31,073 nt of DNA from a virus (IMGVR_UViG_2602041669_000008), one strand, 5' to 3'; positions 1 through 8,816 are shown, numbered from the stretch's first letter. The notes: generated by a model not told the origin, from the sequence alone. Numbers and translations are program-made.

Positions 1-1005
1 TTCATCATCCAGCACCACTTCTTTCACCGTGAAATACCCCGCGTTGATGTACTGCTGGAACGGCACATTTTTACGTCCACCGGACGCTATCAGGATGCCG
101 TTCTCCCGTAACCAGACAAACAGCGCGTTTTGCTTAAGTCCAACAACCTTTGCAAAATTCCCAATCAGGATCCCTTTAGCTACTGATACCCGGTCGGCAA
201 AATCGACTTTAGGAGCGGCGGCCACCAGCTGCTGATTTAGCTGGTGGGCTTTCTGTTCCAGAAGTTGCTTTTGTTCAGCCAGTTCGGCAGCCAGGCGTAG
301 GGCTTCAGGAAGCGTCTGGGGGATTGCGATCGGTTGCTGTTCTTTTTGTCGGAAGTAGCTGTCTTCCAGTTTTTCAAAGAATGCCCATGCCTGATCGGTT
401 TCGATCATTTTAGCGTGGCGGGCTGCGCCGCGTTCCGTCCAGAGAGTGAGGTTTCTGGCGTTCTTACCAACAGAGTTACTAAAAGTAACTCTGTTCTTAA
501 ATTCCTTTAATTTTGAACCAGTTAAAAGAAAGTAGTGTTTACCTTCTTCAAAGCGATCGGAGTTGCAAGACAAATTTTTACGAATATTGCCTTCATCGGT
601 TCCGTACCCCTTAGCAAGAGTTTCGGTCGTTACGACACGTACTCCCTGCCATTCCAGAACGGGAATTTCATCCGGCTGATTTTGAACAACCACCAGCTCC
701 GATTCCTGAGCTGAAGTTGCATGAATTTTTTCTGATTTAACGTTAGTTGCTTTCATTCTGTGTGCCTCCTTGCGTGCTTCGGCTGCGATGGTTGCGTAAT
801 TCAGATGCCCCTGTTCGAGCAGGTATTCACGGATATCAGACAACAGGATACGGTGAACCGCGTTCTTGTCCTTTCTCCGGTAAAGTTGTTTGGTGATCAT
901 GAAGTAGTTGGCAATAACGCCCGGTATATCCCTGGTACTGATACAGGCGGTATGCTGTTCAATTGCCTCGATCATCTCTTCACGGGTGACTAATGACGTT
1001 CTCAT
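1..1005 (-). CDS. ant: Antirepressor (Ant-type, KilAC-like C-terminal region), 3' end cut by the window edge
   Basis: ATG at 1003-1005 (MRTSLVTREE...) overlaps the stop of the upstream small ORF (ATGA); paralog of the complete 372-aa copy at 7480-8598. Confidence 0.7.
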   Translation of the reverse strand, partial: MRTSLVTREEMIEAIEQHTACISTRDIPGVIANYFMITKQLYRRKDKNAVHRILLSDIREYLLEQGHLNYATIAAEARKEAHRMKATNVKSEKIHATSAQESELVVVQNQPDEIPVLEWQGVRVVTTETLAKGYGTDEGNIRKNLSCNSDRFEEGKHYFLLTGSKLKEFKNRVTFSNSVGKNARNLTLWTERGAARHAKMIETDQAWAFFEKLEDSYFRQKEQQPIAIPQTLPEALRLAAELAEQKQLLEQKAHQLNQQLVAAAPKVDFADRVSVAKGILIGNFAKVVGLKQNALFVWLRENGILIASGGRKNVPFQQYINAGYFTVKEVVLDDE

Positions 1006-1196
1006 AGTCCCTCCTGAGCAGAAGCGTTAACAGGGAGGCACCAGTAACTGAGAGAATTGCGTGAATCAGTGGAAAAACGGGCAGAGAAAATGCAGGGAGC
1101 ATCCGGAAGCTGAGAGCGAGCCTCATCTTCTGTCGGTGCAATAACGAAGTGATAGTGACGTTTCTGGCAGGAGTAAAAGCGCCAGATAAATTCAGG
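1..1196. repeat. Direct repeat copy A (about 1.2 kb) matching 7588-8789; covers the icd-like ORF and the 5' two-thirds of ant; probably continues left of the window
   Basis: Positions 1-460 and 640-1196 align near-identically to 7588-8047 and 8230-8789; the track ORFs 29-235 and 7616-7822 are identical; a ~170-bp central patch is divergent. Confidence 0.85.
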
Positions 1197-1223
1197 GCGT
1201 GCGCAAGGATTGGCATTAACCAT
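1002..1223 (-). CDS. icd: Icd-like small protein (73 aa), translationally coupled to ant
   Basis: Track ORF; GAGG 9 nt upstream of ATG 1223; C-terminal 64 aa identical to the copy at 8595-8816, N-terminal 9 aa differ; size and position match P1 icd (from memory). Confidence 0.5.
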   Translation of the reverse strand: MVNANPCARPEFIWRFYSCQKRHYHFVIAPTEDEARSQLPDAPCIFSARFSTDSRNSLSYWCLPVNASAQEGL

Positions 1224-2689: not shown

Positions 2690-2838
2690 AGCAATACAAC
2701 TGAAGGTAGCGCCCGGTACTCAGACTGTGCCGTCCATGGAATATTTGAAAAGGGATCCATCCGTACCGGGCGTGTGATGATTCTGACTGAAGTCACTTGT
2801 CAGTTGTCAATCATTTATCATTAAAAATAATATATTTA

Positions 2839-3399
2839 TTAGTGCATGATGTTTGCCATCTCATAGGCGTCAGCCAGTAACTCCATCTCTGACTTTTTCA
2901 GCAAGGTGAATTCTTTCTTGCCTCCAACCACACCATCGGCATGAACAGGGACCAGCCAGGGGTATTTTTCTCTTACTTCAGCCGGTGCTGCATGCTGGTG
3001 GTGCCATCTACAAAGTGGCAACTGCTTTTTGTGACAACCCGGCGCGGTACGACCGGAGATATGGTGCAGAGACACCTCTTCAGATATTACTCCATGCATA
3101 TAGCAGGCAATGCAGGGGAGAGCGCCAAGAGCATTGGCTATACGCCGTTCCTCCGCCGTCGGTGTTCGTCCCTTCAAGCCACGAGATTTTATTTTTACCG
3201 CACTTTTCCGCGTTTTGCTGGCTGGTGGGCGCTCTTTCTGTTTAGCGATACGGCGGTCGATAGAATCCCGCATTTTCTGATATTGCGATTCTCTCCAGGC
3301 GGGGTCAGCCAACTTTTCCCGTTGCCGAGCGATCGCTCGTTCTCTGGCTGCCTTCTGCCACTCGCGGCGCTGTTCAAGTTTTTGTTCGATTGTTTTCAT
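2839..3399 (-). CDS. ref: Ref-type HNH nuclease (186 aa; basic disordered N-terminus, Cys/His HNH motifs)
   Basis: ATG 3397-3399 in frame with track ORF 2839-3477; motifs CIACYMHG...HHISGR...CHKK...CRWHHQH; length and position next to cre match P1 Ref. Confidence 0.75.
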   Translation of the reverse strand: MKTIEQKLEQRREWQKAARERAIARQREKLADPAWRESQYQKMRDSIDRRIAKQKERPPASKTRKSAVKIKSRGLKGRTPTAEERRIANALGALPCIACYMHGVISEEVSLHHISGRTAPGCHKKQLPLCRWHHQHAAPAEVREKYPWLVPVHADGVVGGKKEFTLLKKSEMELLADAYEMANIMH

Positions 3400-3404
3400 A
3401 TGGC

Positions 3405-3430
3405 AAAAAAAAGGCGGCCTAATGGCCGCC
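3405..3430 (-). terminator. Strong intrinsic terminator on the minus strand ending 6 nt before the ref ATG
   Basis: Plus strand reads A8-GGCGGCC-TAAT-GGCCGCC, so the minus-strand RNA is a perfect 7-bp stem followed by U8. Confidence 0.7.
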
Positions 3431-3490
3431 AATGATGTCAAGGAGTTAAGTAATGGCAACGTCTTCGTAGTTGACAAAAACTGCGGCTAA

Positions 3491-3514
3491 ATTATAGCAA
3501 TCAATTAGAGCAAT
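3491..3514 (-). promoter_or_regulatory. C1 operator-like site (ATTGCTCTAATTGATTG, 14/17) abutting a TATAAT -10 on the minus strand
   Basis: Direct read; -10 TATAAT is plus 3491-3496 reverse-complemented; operator 3498-3514. Confidence 0.55.
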
Positions 3515-3580
3515 GGTAGATATTTTATTTATCGCGAATCACATTTTTTCACTTCAGTACCTGTGTGCTATACTCCTTCT

Positions 3581-3650
3581 TGATTGATTGGATGCGGAAT
3601 ACAAACCCGCTCTTTTGTGCAGCCTGGCTCCTTGCCAGGCTTTTTTATTT
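3581..3650 (+). ncRNA. Candidate small RNA (about 70 nt): extended -10 promoter, 5' motif UGAUUGAUUGG, intrinsic terminator
   Basis: TGcTATACT at 3566-3574; motif at 3581-3591; stem GCCTGGC/GCCAGGC (3622-3640) followed by TTTTTTATTT; no plus-strand ORF. Confidence 0.35.
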
Positions 3651-3956
3651 CATCATGGAAGCTGTTAACGCTTTGGATCTTGCTGAACTGATTGAAAGGG
3701 CATTGTTTACCTTACCCAGGAGTTCGCCAAATTCCGCCATCACTCTAGTAAGCCCGCGCCGCGCTTCCTCCTCCGTTGCATTCATCACAAAATGTTCAGC
3801 ACTCCGCATGCTTTTAACGGGGAACGCAACAGATATCGAGTCGATATCAGGCATCCTATCGCTCAACTTTACGGTGACAATGACAGATGGTGACTGAATT
3901 TGAGAGCTTACAGACAGCACCACATATTTTCCGTCTATTTTGAAATCCTTCCGCAT
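3645..3956 (-). CDS. Hypothetical protein (103 aa) directly downstream of cre
   Basis: Track ORF with protein-like composition; GGTGA 4 nt upstream of the ATG; the overlapping plus-strand ORF 3565-3897 is less protein-like. Confidence 0.5.
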   Translation of the reverse strand: MRKDFKIDGKYVVLSVSSQIQSPSVIVTVKLSDRMPDIDSISVAFPVKSMRSAEHFVMNATEEEARRGLTRVMAEFGELLGKVNNALSISSARSKALTASMMK

Positions 3957-3972
3957 GTGTCACCATAAATAT

Positions 3973-3989
3973 CAAATAATTAGAGCAAT
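3973..3989 (-). promoter_or_regulatory. C1 operator-like site (ATTGCTCTAATTATTTG, 14/17) between the cre stop and the downstream ORF
   Basis: Direct read. Confidence 0.45.
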
Positions 3990-4006
3990 CAAGCGTAAAT
4001 AAACGG

Positions 4007-5038
4007 CTAGTTGCCATCTTCCAGCAGGCGCACCATTGCCCCCGTTTCACTATCCAGGTTACGAATGTAGTTCATGACAATATTTACGTTGGTCCAGCCA
4101 CCAGCTTGCATGATCTCCGGTATTGAAACTCCGGCGCGGGCCATATCTCGCGCGGCACCGACACGGGCACTATGTCCAGACCAGGCCAGGTATCGCTGAC
4201 CAGAGTCATCTTTTGCCCCGTAAATCAATCGGTGAGTTGCTTCAAAAATCCCTTCCAGGGCGCGAGTTGATAGCTGGCTGGTGGATGATGGCGCGGCAAC
4301 ACCATTTTTTCTGACGCGGCAAAACAGGTAGTTATTCGGATCATCAGCTACACCAGAGACAGAAATCCATCGCTCAACCAGTTTAGTTACCCCCAGGCTA
4401 AGTGCCTTCTCTACACCAGCGGTGCTAACCAGCGTTTTCGTTCTGCCAATATGGATTAACATTCTCCCACCGTCAGTACGTGAGATATCTTTAACCCTGA
4501 TCCTAGAAATTTCGGCTATACGTAACAGGGTGTTATAAGCAATCCCCAGAAATGCCAGATTACGTATATCCTGGCAGCGATCGCTATTTTCCATGAGTGA
4601 ACGAACCTGGTCGAAATCAGTGCGTTCGAACGCCAGCGCCTGTTTTGCACGCTCACCGGCATCAACGTTTTCTTTTCGGATCCGTCGCATGACCAGTGAA
4701 ACAGCATTGCTGTCACTTGGTCGTGGCAGCCCGGACCGACGATGAAGCATGTTTAGCTGGCCCAAATGTTGTTGGATAGTTTTTACTGCCAGACCACGCG
4801 CCTGAAGATATAGAAGGTAATCGCGAACATCTTCAGGTTCTGCGGGAAACCATTTCCGGTTATTCAACTTGCACCATGCCGCCCACGACCGGCAAACGGA
4901 CAGAAGCATTTTCCAGGTATGATCAGAAAACGCCTGGCGATCCCTGAACATGTCCATCAGGTTCTTGCGAACCTCATCACTCGTTGCATCGACCGGCAAT
5001 GCAGGCAAATTTTGGTGAACGGTTAACGAATTAGTCAT
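4007..5038 (-). CDS. cre: Cre site-specific tyrosine recombinase (343 aa)
   Basis: Translation is near-identical to canonical P1 Cre as I remember it; differences noticed: N-terminus MTNSL instead of MSNLL, E39D, two A-to-S changes, C-terminal D-to-N; loxP lies about 820 bp upstream. Confidence 0.97.
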   Translation of the reverse strand: MTNSLTVHQNLPALPVDATSDEVRKNLMDMFRDRQAFSDHTWKMLLSVCRSWAAWCKLNNRKWFPAEPEDVRDYLLYLQARGLAVKTIQQHLGQLNMLHRRSGLPRPSDSNAVSLVMRRIRKENVDAGERAKQALAFERTDFDQVRSLMENSDRCQDIRNLAFLGIAYNTLLRIAEISRIRVKDISRTDGGRMLIHIGRTKTLVSTAGVEKALSLGVTKLVERWISVSGVADDPNNYLFCRVRKNGVAAPSSTSQLSTRALEGIFEATHRLIYGAKDDSGQRYLAWSGHSARVGAARDMARAGVSIPEIMQAGGWTNVNIVMNYIRNLDSETGAMVRLLEDGN

Positions 5039-5430
5039 TTATTATGCGTGATTTTAACAGTTAAGCCTTGTTCATGAAGTATCTCATCAATAATTCGAAT
5101 CACATCCCCTGGTAGATCATCGTTCTCGAAATATCTGTGATCGGGGATTTCTACAGTGATTGGGGTTGCTGCTTTATGCAAAATCCGAACAATCTTTTTT
5201 TCTTTTTTGCATGTTGCATATTCAGCCTCTTCGATATCTATCCAGCTCGCACCATCAAATTGCTGGTAAACCCGAGTGTATAGTAAGCGATTTCGCTTTA
5301 CTTCTTCTGCTAACTCCCAAATTGCAACAGCCATAGCACGTTCATTTTCATTCGTTCCAGGGTTAGCAGCTTTTTGTTTTGCGTCGTTCAGTAAGGCGTT
5401 TACCTTGGCATCTGTCAGGCCATTAAACAT
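5035..5430 (-). CDS. Hypothetical protein (131 aa) translationally coupled to cre
   Basis: Track ORF; GGTGA 3 nt upstream of the ATG; stop TGA overlaps the cre ATG (ATGA); no family recognised. Confidence 0.6.
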   Translation of the reverse strand: MFNGLTDAKVNALLNDAKQKAANPGTNENERAMAVAIWELAEEVKRNRLLYTRVYQQFDGASWIDIEEAEYATCKKEKKIVRILHKAATPITVEIPDHRYFENDDLPGDVIRIIDEILHEQGLTVKITHNK

Positions 5431-5449
5431 TCATCACCTCATGATCAAG

Positions 5450-5671
5450 TTAAATTATTGTTTTCAGCAGAGTGTACAGGATTGGCTCTGCCTTTACCTG
5501 GTTATGGTTCTCGTCATAGAAACGCCAGCGACCGCGCGTGCGTTCTATTTTCTCTTCACCGCGAGATAATGACAGTTGGTAACTATCACGCTCAAACCAT
5601 TTTGCCCGCCAGTAACCACGGTTTTTCTCAAGCTCAAGATGAGTGGACACTTTAGCAGCTGAATATCCCAT
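5450..5671 (-). CDS. Hypothetical basic protein (73 aa)
   Basis: Track ORF; GGTGA 3 nt upstream of the ATG, preceded by CCAATCAATCA; first gene of the unit ending in cre. Confidence 0.5.
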   Translation of the reverse strand: MGYSAAKVSTHLELEKNRGYWRAKWFERDSYQLSLSRGEEKIERTRGRWRFYDENHNQVKAEPILYTLLKTII

Positions 5672-5768
5672 TTTTCACCTCTGATTGATTGGTGGTGCTA
5701 AGTGCGCTACGCGAAATCTGGAGCACTAACACTGCCAACATTTCGCAGATTTTACGTAGCGCAACCTT

Positions 5769-5788
5769 GATCAAATGATCAAGTGATC
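5769..5788. promoter_or_regulatory. Cluster of three GATC (Dam) sites within 20 bp in the lox-proximal promoter region
   Basis: GATC at 5769, 5777 and 5785; Dam-sensitive cre promoters are described for P1 (from memory). Confidence 0.4.
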
Positions 5789-5860
5789 ACTATTTGACCT
5801 GATAAGGTATTGAACTGTATGGATTTACAGGTAAATTAATCATGTTCAATAACCCTTAAG

Positions 5861-5894
5861 ATAACTTCGTATAATGTATGCTATACGAAGTTAT
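5861..5894. other. loxP: loxP site (13-bp inverted repeats around an 8-bp spacer)
   Basis: Exact match ATAACTTCGTATA-ATGTATGC-TATACGAAGTTAT. Confidence 0.98.
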
Positions 5895-6020
5895 TAGGTC
5901 CGAAGAGGAGTTTACGTCCAGCCGCGCATAAAAATCAATAATCATTAGAACAATAAATTTTGAGAGAAAAATCCCACTCCACCAGCAAAAAACTGGATTG
6001 TTTTTCATAGTTGTTTGACA

Positions 6021-6037
6021 ATTGCTCTAATAAATTA
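6021..6037 (+). promoter_or_regulatory. C1 operator (ATTGCTCTAATAAATTA, 16/17) in the spacer of a TTGACA-N17 promoter upstream of coi-c1
   Basis: TTGACA at 6015-6020 immediately followed by the operator; a weaker operator-like site lies at 5938-5954. Confidence 0.65.
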
Positions 6038-6275
6038 TAGTTTTGCCGCCGTTACGTAATACGACTTTGGATTCACTATTTAATGTGTCTTCAGCGTTGT
6101 AGAGCGGCTCAGAAGGAAATGAGCAAACAGGGAAACCTTATACAACGGCATTACAGCTATGCATTGCTCATCTTACACACAGCGCAATGTTGTTAGATTA
6201 CCCCAGCATGGATCATGGGTGAAACAGTAGGTCAGAGCTTCAGGCTCTGTGTTGTCAATACAGTGAGGCATAATT

Positions 6276-7479: not shown

Positions 7480-8598
7480 TTATTCAGCCGCCACCGGTTT
7501 TAACAAGCCAGCATCGAGCAGTTTACGCGTCAACCACTGCTGGCCTTTACCCGTTAATTGGGGCGTCAGCCGTATCTGGTAGCCATTTTCATCATCCAGC
7601 ACCACTTCTTTCACCGTGAAATACCCCGCGTTGATGTACTGCTGGAACGGCACATTTTTACGTCCACCGGACGCTATCAGGATGCCGTTCTCCCGTAACC
7701 AGACAAACAGCGCGTTTTGCTTAAGTCCAACAACCTTTGCAAAATTCCCAATCAGGATCCCTTTAGCTACTGATACCCGGTCGGCAAAATCGACTTTAGG
7801 AGCGGCGGCCACCAGCTGCTGATTTAGCTGGTGGGCTTTCTGTTCCAGAAGTTGCTTTTGTTCAGCCAGTTCGGCAGCCAGGCGTAGGGCTTCAGGAAGC
7901 GTCTGGGGGATTGCGATCGGTTGCTGTTCTTTTTGTCGGAAGTAGCTGTCTTCCAGTTTTTCAAAGAATGCCCATGCCTGATCGGTTTCGAGCATTTTAG
8001 CGTGGCGGGCTGCGCCGCGTTCTGTCCAGAGGGTGAGTGAGCGAACATTGCGAGCAATTTTTACAGAGTAGTTTAAAGCTACTCTGTGCTTCAACTCGCG
8101 CAATGATTCTCCTTCAACTTTGAAAAAGTGCTTCCCTTCAACAAAGCGTACTTTGTTCTCATGATGATTTTGGCGAATACGGATTGTTTCTGTCCCATAC
8201 CCTCTAGCAAGAGTCTCGGTTGTCACTACACGCACTCCCTGCCATTCCAGAACGGGAATTTCATCAGACTGATTCTGAACAACCACCAGCTCCGATTCCT
8301 GAACTGAAGGTGCATGAATTTTTTCTAATTTAACGTTATTTGCTTTCATTCTGTGTGCCTCCTTGCGTGCTTCGGCTGCGACGGTTGCGTAATTCAGATG
8401 ACCCTGTTCGAGCAGGTATTCACGGATATCAGACAACAGGATACGGTGAACCGCGTTCTTGTCCTTTCTCCGGTAAAGTTGTTTGGTGATCATGAAGTAG
8501 TTGGCAATAACGCCTGGTATATCCCTGGTACTGATACAGGCAGTGTGCTGTTCAATTGCCTCGATAATCTCTTCACGGGTGACTAATGACGTTCTCAT
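7480..8598 (-). CDS. ant: Antirepressor (372 aa; Bro-N/Rha-like N-terminal region, KilAC-type C-terminal domain)
   Basis: Track ORF; C-terminal motif ...VAKGILIGNFAKVVGLKQNALFVWLRENGIL...; start overlaps the icd-like stop (ATGA). Confidence 0.8.
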   Translation of the reverse strand: MRTSLVTREEIIEAIEQHTACISTRDIPGVIANYFMITKQLYRRKDKNAVHRILLSDIREYLLEQGHLNYATVAAEARKEAHRMKANNVKLEKIHAPSVQESELVVVQNQSDEIPVLEWQGVRVVTTETLARGYGTETIRIRQNHHENKVRFVEGKHFFKVEGESLRELKHRVALNYSVKIARNVRSLTLWTERGAARHAKMLETDQAWAFFEKLEDSYFRQKEQQPIAIPQTLPEALRLAAELAEQKQLLEQKAHQLNQQLVAAAPKVDFADRVSVAKGILIGNFAKVVGLKQNALFVWLRENGILIASGGRKNVPFQQYINAGYFTVKEVVLDDENGYQIRLTPQLTGKGQQWLTRKLLDAGLLKPVAAE

Positions 8599-8789
8599 AG
8601 TCCCTCCTGAGCAGAAGCGTTAACAGGGAGGCACCAGTAACTGAGAGAATTGCGTGAATCAGTGGAAAAACGGGCAGAGAAAATACATGGGGCGTCAGGA
8701 AGCTGAGAGCGGGCCTCATCTTCTGTTGGTGCAATAACGAAGTGATAGTGACGTTTTTGGCAGGAGTAAAAGCGCCAGATAAATTCAGG
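7588..8789. repeat. Direct repeat copy B (matches 1-1196)
   Basis: See copy A; divergent patch at about 8047-8225, inside ant. Confidence 0.85.
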
Positions 8790-8816
8790 ATGAGTTGGGG
8801 TAGGGATAGTAGCCAT
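8595..8816 (-). CDS. icd: Icd-like small protein (73 aa), translationally coupled to ant
   Basis: ATG 8814-8816 with AGGAGG 8 nt upstream, in frame with track ORF 8595-9044; MATIPTPTHPEFIWRFYSCQ... Confidence 0.5.
   Translation of the reverse strand: MATIPTPTHPEFIWRFYSCQKRHYHFVIAPTEDEARSQLPDAPCIFSARFSTDSRNSLSYWCLPVNASAQEGL

Follow-up and report, generated by a model that had tools for sequence, protein, structure and literature searches.

An additional gene, ORF131, between cra and cre in the loxP–cra–cre module of a P1-type phage-plasmid

The stretch of DNA IMGVR_UViG_2602041669_000008, analysed at its full length of 31,073 nucleotides (nt) and called the window below, is by its sequence a P1-type phage-plasmid, in which the loxP–cra–cre module contains one additional gene, an open reading frame (ORF) of 131 codons designated ORF131. 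The Cre–loxP module of Punavirus is represented by an exact 34-bp loxP site, ATAACTTCGTATA-ATGTATGC-TATACGAAGTTAT (5861..5894, no strand assigned), which is the single match in the window with 0 mismatches and has no counterpart in 100 shuffles, and by the tyrosine recombinase Cre, identical to P1 Cre at 337 of 343 residues. On the minus strand the order is loxP, a 189-nt leader with the promoter region of the cre operon (5672..5860), cra (5450..5671), a 19-nt spacer, ORF131 (5035..5430) and cre (4007..5038), with c8 and ref downstream. The leader is near-identical in alignment to P1 positions 1-206, including the P3cre (pR1) promoter and Dam sites. The gene cra, encoding 73 amino acids (aa), is a standard P1 gene with the Shine–Dalgarno (SD) sequence GAGGTGA at 5675-5681; ORF131, encoding an acidic orphan protein, is the sole gene extra relative to P1; and cre, encoding 343 aa with 98% identity to P1 Cre, has no SD site.

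The tested 1.1 kb of this locus (4900-6000) has 100% identity to plasmid p95JB1A of Escherichia coli 95JB1 (NZ_CP021336) and 99.6% identity to pO111_3 (NC_013370). These are P1-like plasmids of Shiga toxin-producing E. coli (STEC) of serogroups O111 and O103; as known systems they show no difference from the window, being the same element. In p95JB1A, ORF131 is annotated as a hypothetical protein, WP_000481733.1.

With the module of P1 itself (Punavirus; NC_005856, nt 1-1467), the window shares the exact loxP, the leader with its Dam sites, the gene order, and c8 and ref downstream, as well as protein identities of 93% for Cra and 98% for Cre. It differs in a 404-nt block with ORF131 between cra and cre, in the ~25 nt that end cra and the 21 nt that begin cre, both of another haplotype, and in the junction itself: the P1 order cra, 7 nt, cre is replaced by cra, 19 nt, ORF131, ATGA, cre. 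The original prediction described two minus-strand ORFs, of 73 aa (5450-5671) and 131 aa (5035-5430), filling a loxP-to-cre interval of about 0.82 kb, and both ORFs and the interval, measured at 822 nt, were found as described. The corresponding P1 interval (418 nt) was wrongly taken for promoter sequence, since it holds annotated cra at P1 positions 207-428. Accordingly, of the supposed two-gene cassette distinguishing the window from P1, ORF131 stands as an extra gene (net 404 nt, absent from reference P1), and the 73-aa ORF, annotated there, does not.

By homology the 73-aa ORF is the already known Cra of P1, the gene of which is annotated between loxP and cre in the reference genome. It shares 68 of 73 residues with P1 Cra YP_006471 (93%) over the full length and matches phrog_804 (E = 1.1e-32, residues 3-73). 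The gene is co-oriented with cre and is also annotated in P7 and SJ46, and its location between loxP and cre has been described (PMC2409434). In the P1 annotation, three cre promoters overlap or flank cra. Cra occurs only in P1-like elements; Pfam and NCBIfam gave no family for it and a PDB profile search gave no match, and its AlphaFold2 model, built from a 9-sequence alignment, is uninformative (predicted local distance difference test score, pLDDT, 53.6). To our knowledge, no function is known for Cra, the ‘Cre-associated’ protein. Half of the original finding is hence already known, and ORF131 is a variation on the known loxP–cra–cre module. Hundreds of Cra proteins (including P0013, P0018 and P0019) are named ‘creatininase’ in NCBI/RefSeq; a 73-aa phage protein without a Pfam or NCBIfam match cannot be a creatininase, so a propagated annotation error is likely, and the label perhaps arose from the gene symbol cra.

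Comparison of diverged copies shows that ORF131 is a genuine gene and that purifying selection acts on it. When the window is compared with the Salmonella variants (four sequence variants), the ratio of nonsynonymous to synonymous substitution (dN/dS) is 0.11-0.17 at a synonymous divergence (dS) of 0.4-0.5, so the conservation in related elements by which the original prediction could be checked was found for ORF131 in E. coli and Salmonella alike. All four diverged variants preserve an open frame of exactly 131 codons, and 62 of 131 alignment columns show no change among variants differing at 31% of synonymous sites. Within E. coli, dN/dS is 0.46 at a dS of 0.11, against 0.04-0.05 for Cre, indicating that the ORF131 protein evolves faster than Cre. 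The gene is AT-rich, with a GC content of 40% overall and 33% at third codon positions, compared with 50% and 49% in cre. The predicted protein, of 15 kDa, is soluble and mildly acidic (isoelectric point, pI, 5.6; net charge -4). Both RefSeq and PHROGs already predict ORF131 as a hypothetical gene.

Family searches characterize ORF131, at the level of sequence, as a narrowly distributed, uncharacterised orphan. It corresponds over its full length to phrog_20152, which has no annotated function (E = 3.8e-92, residues 1-131 on profile positions 1-131). Searches against Pfam, NCBIfam and PADLOC gave sub-threshold noise and no family; PADLOC-DB v2 contained no matching defence component, the only hit being JetC (E = 0.01, 11.7 bits), consistent with coiled-coil noise. 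A word-indexed search of 5.8 billion clusters returned six clusters, all at least 81% identical, and an exhaustive phmmer search of 1.84 billion representatives returned only its own cluster and repetitive long proteins, treated as compositional noise. No relative was found in one genome per species (GTDB), and IMG/VR contained only near-identical copies and one frameshifted draft. The AlphaFold2 model (7-sequence alignment, pLDDT 53) suggests that the N-terminal half is helical and that the C-terminal half is a small alpha/beta structure. A Foldseek search of this low-confidence model against the PDB gave nothing better than E = 0.66 and was treated as no information, and the one match in a PDB profile search (E = 0.74) was not usable. 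Within the searchable library, nothing on ORF131 was found in the literature by protein accession or in comparisons of P1-like elements with cra or cre variation.

An A6-G-A7 homopolymer tract lies within ORF131 (5195..5208, minus strand). A frameshift of 1 nt at this tract, giving a 92-aa product, occurs in the draft assembly L022 and in protein P0006; cre is also broken in L022, so a sequencing error is the likely cause there, and slippage at the tract is possible.

ORF131 was found in 32 of 695 complete E. coli genomes carrying cre, mostly O111:H8 and O111:H- STEC, and in 14 of 704 PLSDB records matching the lox-cre region, but in none of the 24 matching records of deposited phage genomes. 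About 95% of cre-bearing E. coli replicons are without it. It is also present in Salmonella P1-like contigs, in which Cre is 81% and Cra 60% identical to those of the window and the gene order and 4-nt overlap are the same. In all 33 E. coli records and all Salmonella loci it lies directly upstream of cre. In the records compared, only a minority of P1-like elements carry ORF131; they belong to two divergent lineages, and the gene always lies between cra and cre. In E. coli 06-00048, the ORF131–cre region is found both on the chromosome (NZ_CP015229.1, 1878341-1878755) and on the 136-kb plasmid NZ_CP012497.1, which may reflect integration of a P1-like copy or a duplication introduced in assembly.

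The identity profile of the locus is mosaic. Compared with P1, the window has 96-98% identity in the flanks (cra body and cre beyond codon 7), only 72% in the last 25 nt of cra and 67% in the first 21 nt of cre, and ORF131 has no counterpart. Compared with Salmonella contig L004, the flanks have 65-72% identity, while the last 25 nt of cra have 88%, ORF131 89% and the first 21 nt of cre 86%. The E. coli and Salmonella lineages are separated by 0.31 synonymous differences per synonymous site in ORF131 and by more than 0.75 (saturated) in cre. Since this patch (5018..5474, minus strand; last ~25 nt of cra, spacer, ORF131 and first 21 nt of cre) is far less diverged than its flanks and ORF131 is AT-rich, it has evidently moved between P1-like lineages by homologous recombination; the breaks in identity place the crossovers within the final ~25 nt of cra and the opening ~21 nt of cre. 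The patch carries cre codons 1-7, which explains the Cre N-terminus MTNSL in place of the MSNLL of P1, a difference correctly noticed in the original prediction; the remainder of Cre is 98% identical.

In alignment to P1, near identity extends to the last ~25 nt of cra and is resumed from cre codon 8, with a net gain of 404 nt between. In the elements without ORF131 (P1, P7, SJ46, 673R5, phi456, 813R1 and Cronobacter phage JK004), the cra stop codon is followed by 7 nt and the cre ATG. In the variants with ORF131, the position of the cre ATG is occupied by ATGAGGTGA (5434..5442, minus strand), the ATG of which, 7 nt past the cra stop, precedes the SD of ORF131; this sequence is kept in all ORF131-bearing variants (the window, L004, L007 and L008). 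Its ATG opens a 2-codon mini-ORF overlapping the SD GAGGTGAT (5433-5440). At the other end, the ORF131 stop codon TGA overlaps the cre ATG as ATGA (5035..5038, minus strand), as originally predicted, and the overlap is kept in the E. coli and Salmonella variants (L004-L010). The ATGA at 5439-5442 and that at 5038-5035 are 404 nt apart, so that the indel at the cre start codon is flanked on both sides by a 4-nt direct repeat. P1 may alternatively be aligned with its cre start paired to the ORF131 start.

The first six residues of ORF131, MFN[SG]LT, nearly repeat the MTNSLT of Cre (window 5428-5445 and 5018-5038), despite differing synonymous positions (AGC and TCG for Ser, CTG and TTA for Leu). 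The likeness could be a vestige of insertion-site duplication or a result of selection on early codons. Local alignment of ORF131 with Cre was not significant, its score being reached by 17 of 500 shuffles for the first 60 Cre residues and by 75 of 500 for whole Cre. Derivation of ORF131 from cre or cra, or a paralogue elsewhere in the window, was rejected: local alignments did not score significantly above shuffled sequences, and a tblastn search of the window recovered ORF131 only.

In the Salmonella and Cronobacter P1-like elements, another ORF, of 356 aa, is present between loxP and cra (2699-3769 in both L004 and L008; 3566-4636 in JK004, listed as L011). Its stop codon and the cra start share a 4-nt overlap; it belongs to phrog_7674, which has no annotated function, and has no Pfam or PADLOC match. 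With this ORF before cra and ORF131 before cre, the loxP–cre interval accepts insertions at more than one translational junction.

Both cra and ORF131 have GAGGTGA 3 nt before the ATG, which bears out the GGTGA motifs originally reported. Predicted duplexes with the anti-SD sequence have energies of -11.7 kcal/mol for cra, -13.0 for ORF131 and -1.3 for cre, and of -3.0 and -0.7 for cre of P1 and JK004. Thus, cre is without an SD in every arrangement examined, and the SD of ORF131 is the strongest of the three genes. A consensus scan of 3900-6100 on the minus strand found no promoter-like or terminator-like site, although the scan is crude and weak signals may escape it. The counterpart of P1 pR3 is still present in the cra tail (-35 TGTACA; -10 AATAAT, CATTAT in P1). 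As ORF131 showed no detectable promoter or terminator of its own, it would be transcribed together with cra and cre from the cre promoters (equivalents of pR1-pR3).

The leader contains three GATC sites within 20 nt (5769-5788), where P1 has two, together with one nearer loxP that is lost in the window; a further GATC at 5443-5446, in the cra–ORF131 spacer, occurs only in the E. coli variants. Slight differences from P1 in how Dam controls the cre promoter are possible.

The proposed course of translation is as follows. Ribosomes would initiate on the strong SD of ORF131 and, on terminating, would use the ATGA overlap to restart on the cre ATG, which has no SD; this junction would stand in for the cra stop, 7 nt and cre ATG of P1 and do the same job. 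The supply of Cre would be preserved, and the ORF131 protein would be made whenever Cre is made, that is, in the plasmid prophage and in early infection. Coupling of ORF131 to cre, as originally proposed, is plausible from the overlap and the missing SD, but it is not special to the window, since P1 cre is likewise SD-less and starts 7 nt past the cra stop. The absence of an SD from cre everywhere and this P1 spacing point to coupling as a property of the locus that is preserved by the insert; in P1, we infer that Cre synthesis depends for the most part on ribosomes handed on from cra, or on an A/U-rich unstructured start. Stop/start-coupled operons with ATGA, found in many bacteria and phages, share the 4-nt overlap and a downstream gene without an SD. 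The window differs from them in an unstructured, A/U-rich cre start, and the dependence of Cre on ORF131 translation is predicted. Sequestration of the cre start was considered and rejected, as RNA folding at both junctions gave no structure beyond shuffled controls (z +0.8, -0.8 and +0.4).

Morons are accessory genes inserted between conserved neighbours, described for lambdoid phages. ORF131 resembles them in being present or absent between genes that adjoin in relatives, in its deviant, AT-rich base composition compared with its neighbours and in its location in a region expected to be prophage-expressed. It differs in having no detected promoter or terminator of its own, and would be part of an already coupled operon into which it was spliced, not an autonomous unit of transcription. 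The best explanation, with a probability of about 0.55, is that ORF131 is an AT-rich, lineage-restricted, moron-like accessory gene in a precise 404-bp indel, cotranscribed with and translationally coupled to cre. Most likely it acts independently of Cre, in an accessory function expressed by the prophage; this is the least certain part of the explanation, and any particular activity would be a guess. Independent cargo is favoured because about 95% of relatives run Cre–loxP without ORF131 and because the same cassette serves Cre proteins only 81% identical.

Several points weigh against this explanation. The dS of ORF131 within E. coli (0.11) is as large as that of cre (0.13), so ORF131 is not a recent arrival there, and the indel could have arisen either by insertion of ORF131 at a junction of the P1 type or by its deletion from an ancestor that carried it. 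The unstructured, A/U-rich start of cre could allow SD-independent initiation, with no coupling. The occurrence of ORF131 only beside cre, its Cre-like first six residues and the strictly conserved overlap would fit a Cre-related role too, and the predicted structures are uninformative as to function (pLDDT 53).

Concerning history, it is possible, though on balance rather doubtful, that the ORF131 arrangement is ancestral and that the P1 junction arose by deletion, via the ATGA microhomology or via an imperfect repeat of ~30 nt that the starts of ORF131 and cre share. ORF131-bearing elements resemble the outgroups JK004 and L004 in their cra tail and cre head (81-88%), the P1-type junction being the outlier (67-72%). 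The latter is identical in P1, SJ46, 673R5, phi456 and 813R1 and departs from this sequence at a single synonymous position in P7, and the equal dS of ORF131 and cre within E. coli agrees with long residence. In a MAFFT alignment, the upstream region and start of P1 cre match those of ORF131 at 18 of 26 positions. By hand count the P1 cre start matches the ORF131 start at 14 of 19 positions and the L004 cre start at 15 of 19, which makes its origin as an ORF131–cre chimera, the signature expected of a deletion, too close to call. The much lower E. coli–Salmonella divergence of ORF131 than of cre or cra argues against simple vertical inheritance, and the AT-rich composition suggests a foreign origin. 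Furthermore, JK004, a relative of the Salmonella lineage that has the 356-aa ORF, is without ORF131 and yet keeps the 7-nt junction. This alternative concerns history only and is compatible with either functional reading, independent cargo or Cre factor.

As to function, ORF131 could be a dedicated accessory factor or regulator of Cre, made in fixed proportion to it through the overlap and serving to bias dimer resolution, limit toxicity or time cyclization. Its location directly upstream of cre and nowhere else, the ATGA overlap kept across a dS of 0.4-0.5, the Cre-like hexapeptide and its transfer as a patch with the first 7 cre codons are consistent with such a role. Nevertheless it is unlikely, given that P1 and about 95% of P1-type elements use Cre–loxP without ORF131 and that the adjoining Cre proteins are only 81% identical while ORF131 is 89% identical. 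The fixed site is equally explained if homologous recombination through the cra and cre flanks is the sole route of spread, and the ORF131–Cre alignment was not significant against the 500 shuffles. No DNA-binding or recombinase-partner domain was detected in Pfam, PHROGs, NCBIfam, PADLOC or PDB sequences. Excisionases, or recombination directionality factors (RDFs), are like ORF131 small genes adjoining and co-oriented with a tyrosine recombinase gene; however, ORF131 is acidic, not basic and Xis-like, and searches of Pfam, NCBIfam and PDB sequences gave it no helix-turn-helix or winged-helix match. Cre–loxP is bidirectional and is not known to need an RDF. A more specific form of this idea, that ORF131 is a co-translated acidic partner of Cre that modulates recombination (favouring resolution, exerting restraint or providing a link to replication) and is exchanged together with the first cre codons, is slightly less probable still.

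It is very improbable that the frame is merely a translated spacer tuning ribosome flow to cre, with an irrelevant protein product. The SD-less cre, dependent on an upstream ORF in every arrangement, and the strong SD of ORF131 would suit a spacer, but a dN/dS of 0.11-0.17 between lineages indicates selection on the amino-acid sequence beyond an open frame, as do the 62 invariant columns in the face of 31% synonymous-site difference. A chance ORF in a non-coding spacer, which would account for the lack of family, fold and literature support, is effectively ruled out by purifying selection, the strong and correctly spaced SD, the 131 codons intact in four diverged variants and the gene calls of RefSeq and PHROGs.

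Outside the cre locus, an icd-like gene and a KilAC antirepressor gene are present between the terminase gene (pacB) and c1 (window 7480-8816), with a second copy region at window 1-1223; in L004, L007 and L010 the terminase gene directly adjoins c1. The second icd-ant copy follows mat, giving a plasmid with two antirepressor modules; at this position P1 presumably carries res/mod. Lactococcus phage Q33 (JX564242.1 / NC_049809.1, 17548-17583) also contains, inside the annotated portal gene, 36 nt that match loxP and its flank perfectly; such a match is unexpected for a natural genome and may be an engineering scar or contamination.

Cre–loxP is widely used in genetics, while its natural operon, with a cre gene devoid of a ribosome-binding site, is little studied. 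Should ORF131 not act on Cre, it would be a further uncharacterised cargo gene of a prophage, of note chiefly because it is associated with P1-like plasmids of O111 STEC. If ORF131 does act on Cre, it would offer a new handle on recombinase control, and as a modulator it would be the first phage-encoded protein regulator of Cre–loxP. The ORF131 variant shows that an extra gene can be accommodated, and has spread, at the cra–cre junction, with the ribosome hand-over to cre apparently unbroken, and it provides a natural test case for the coupling of Cre synthesis to upstream translation.

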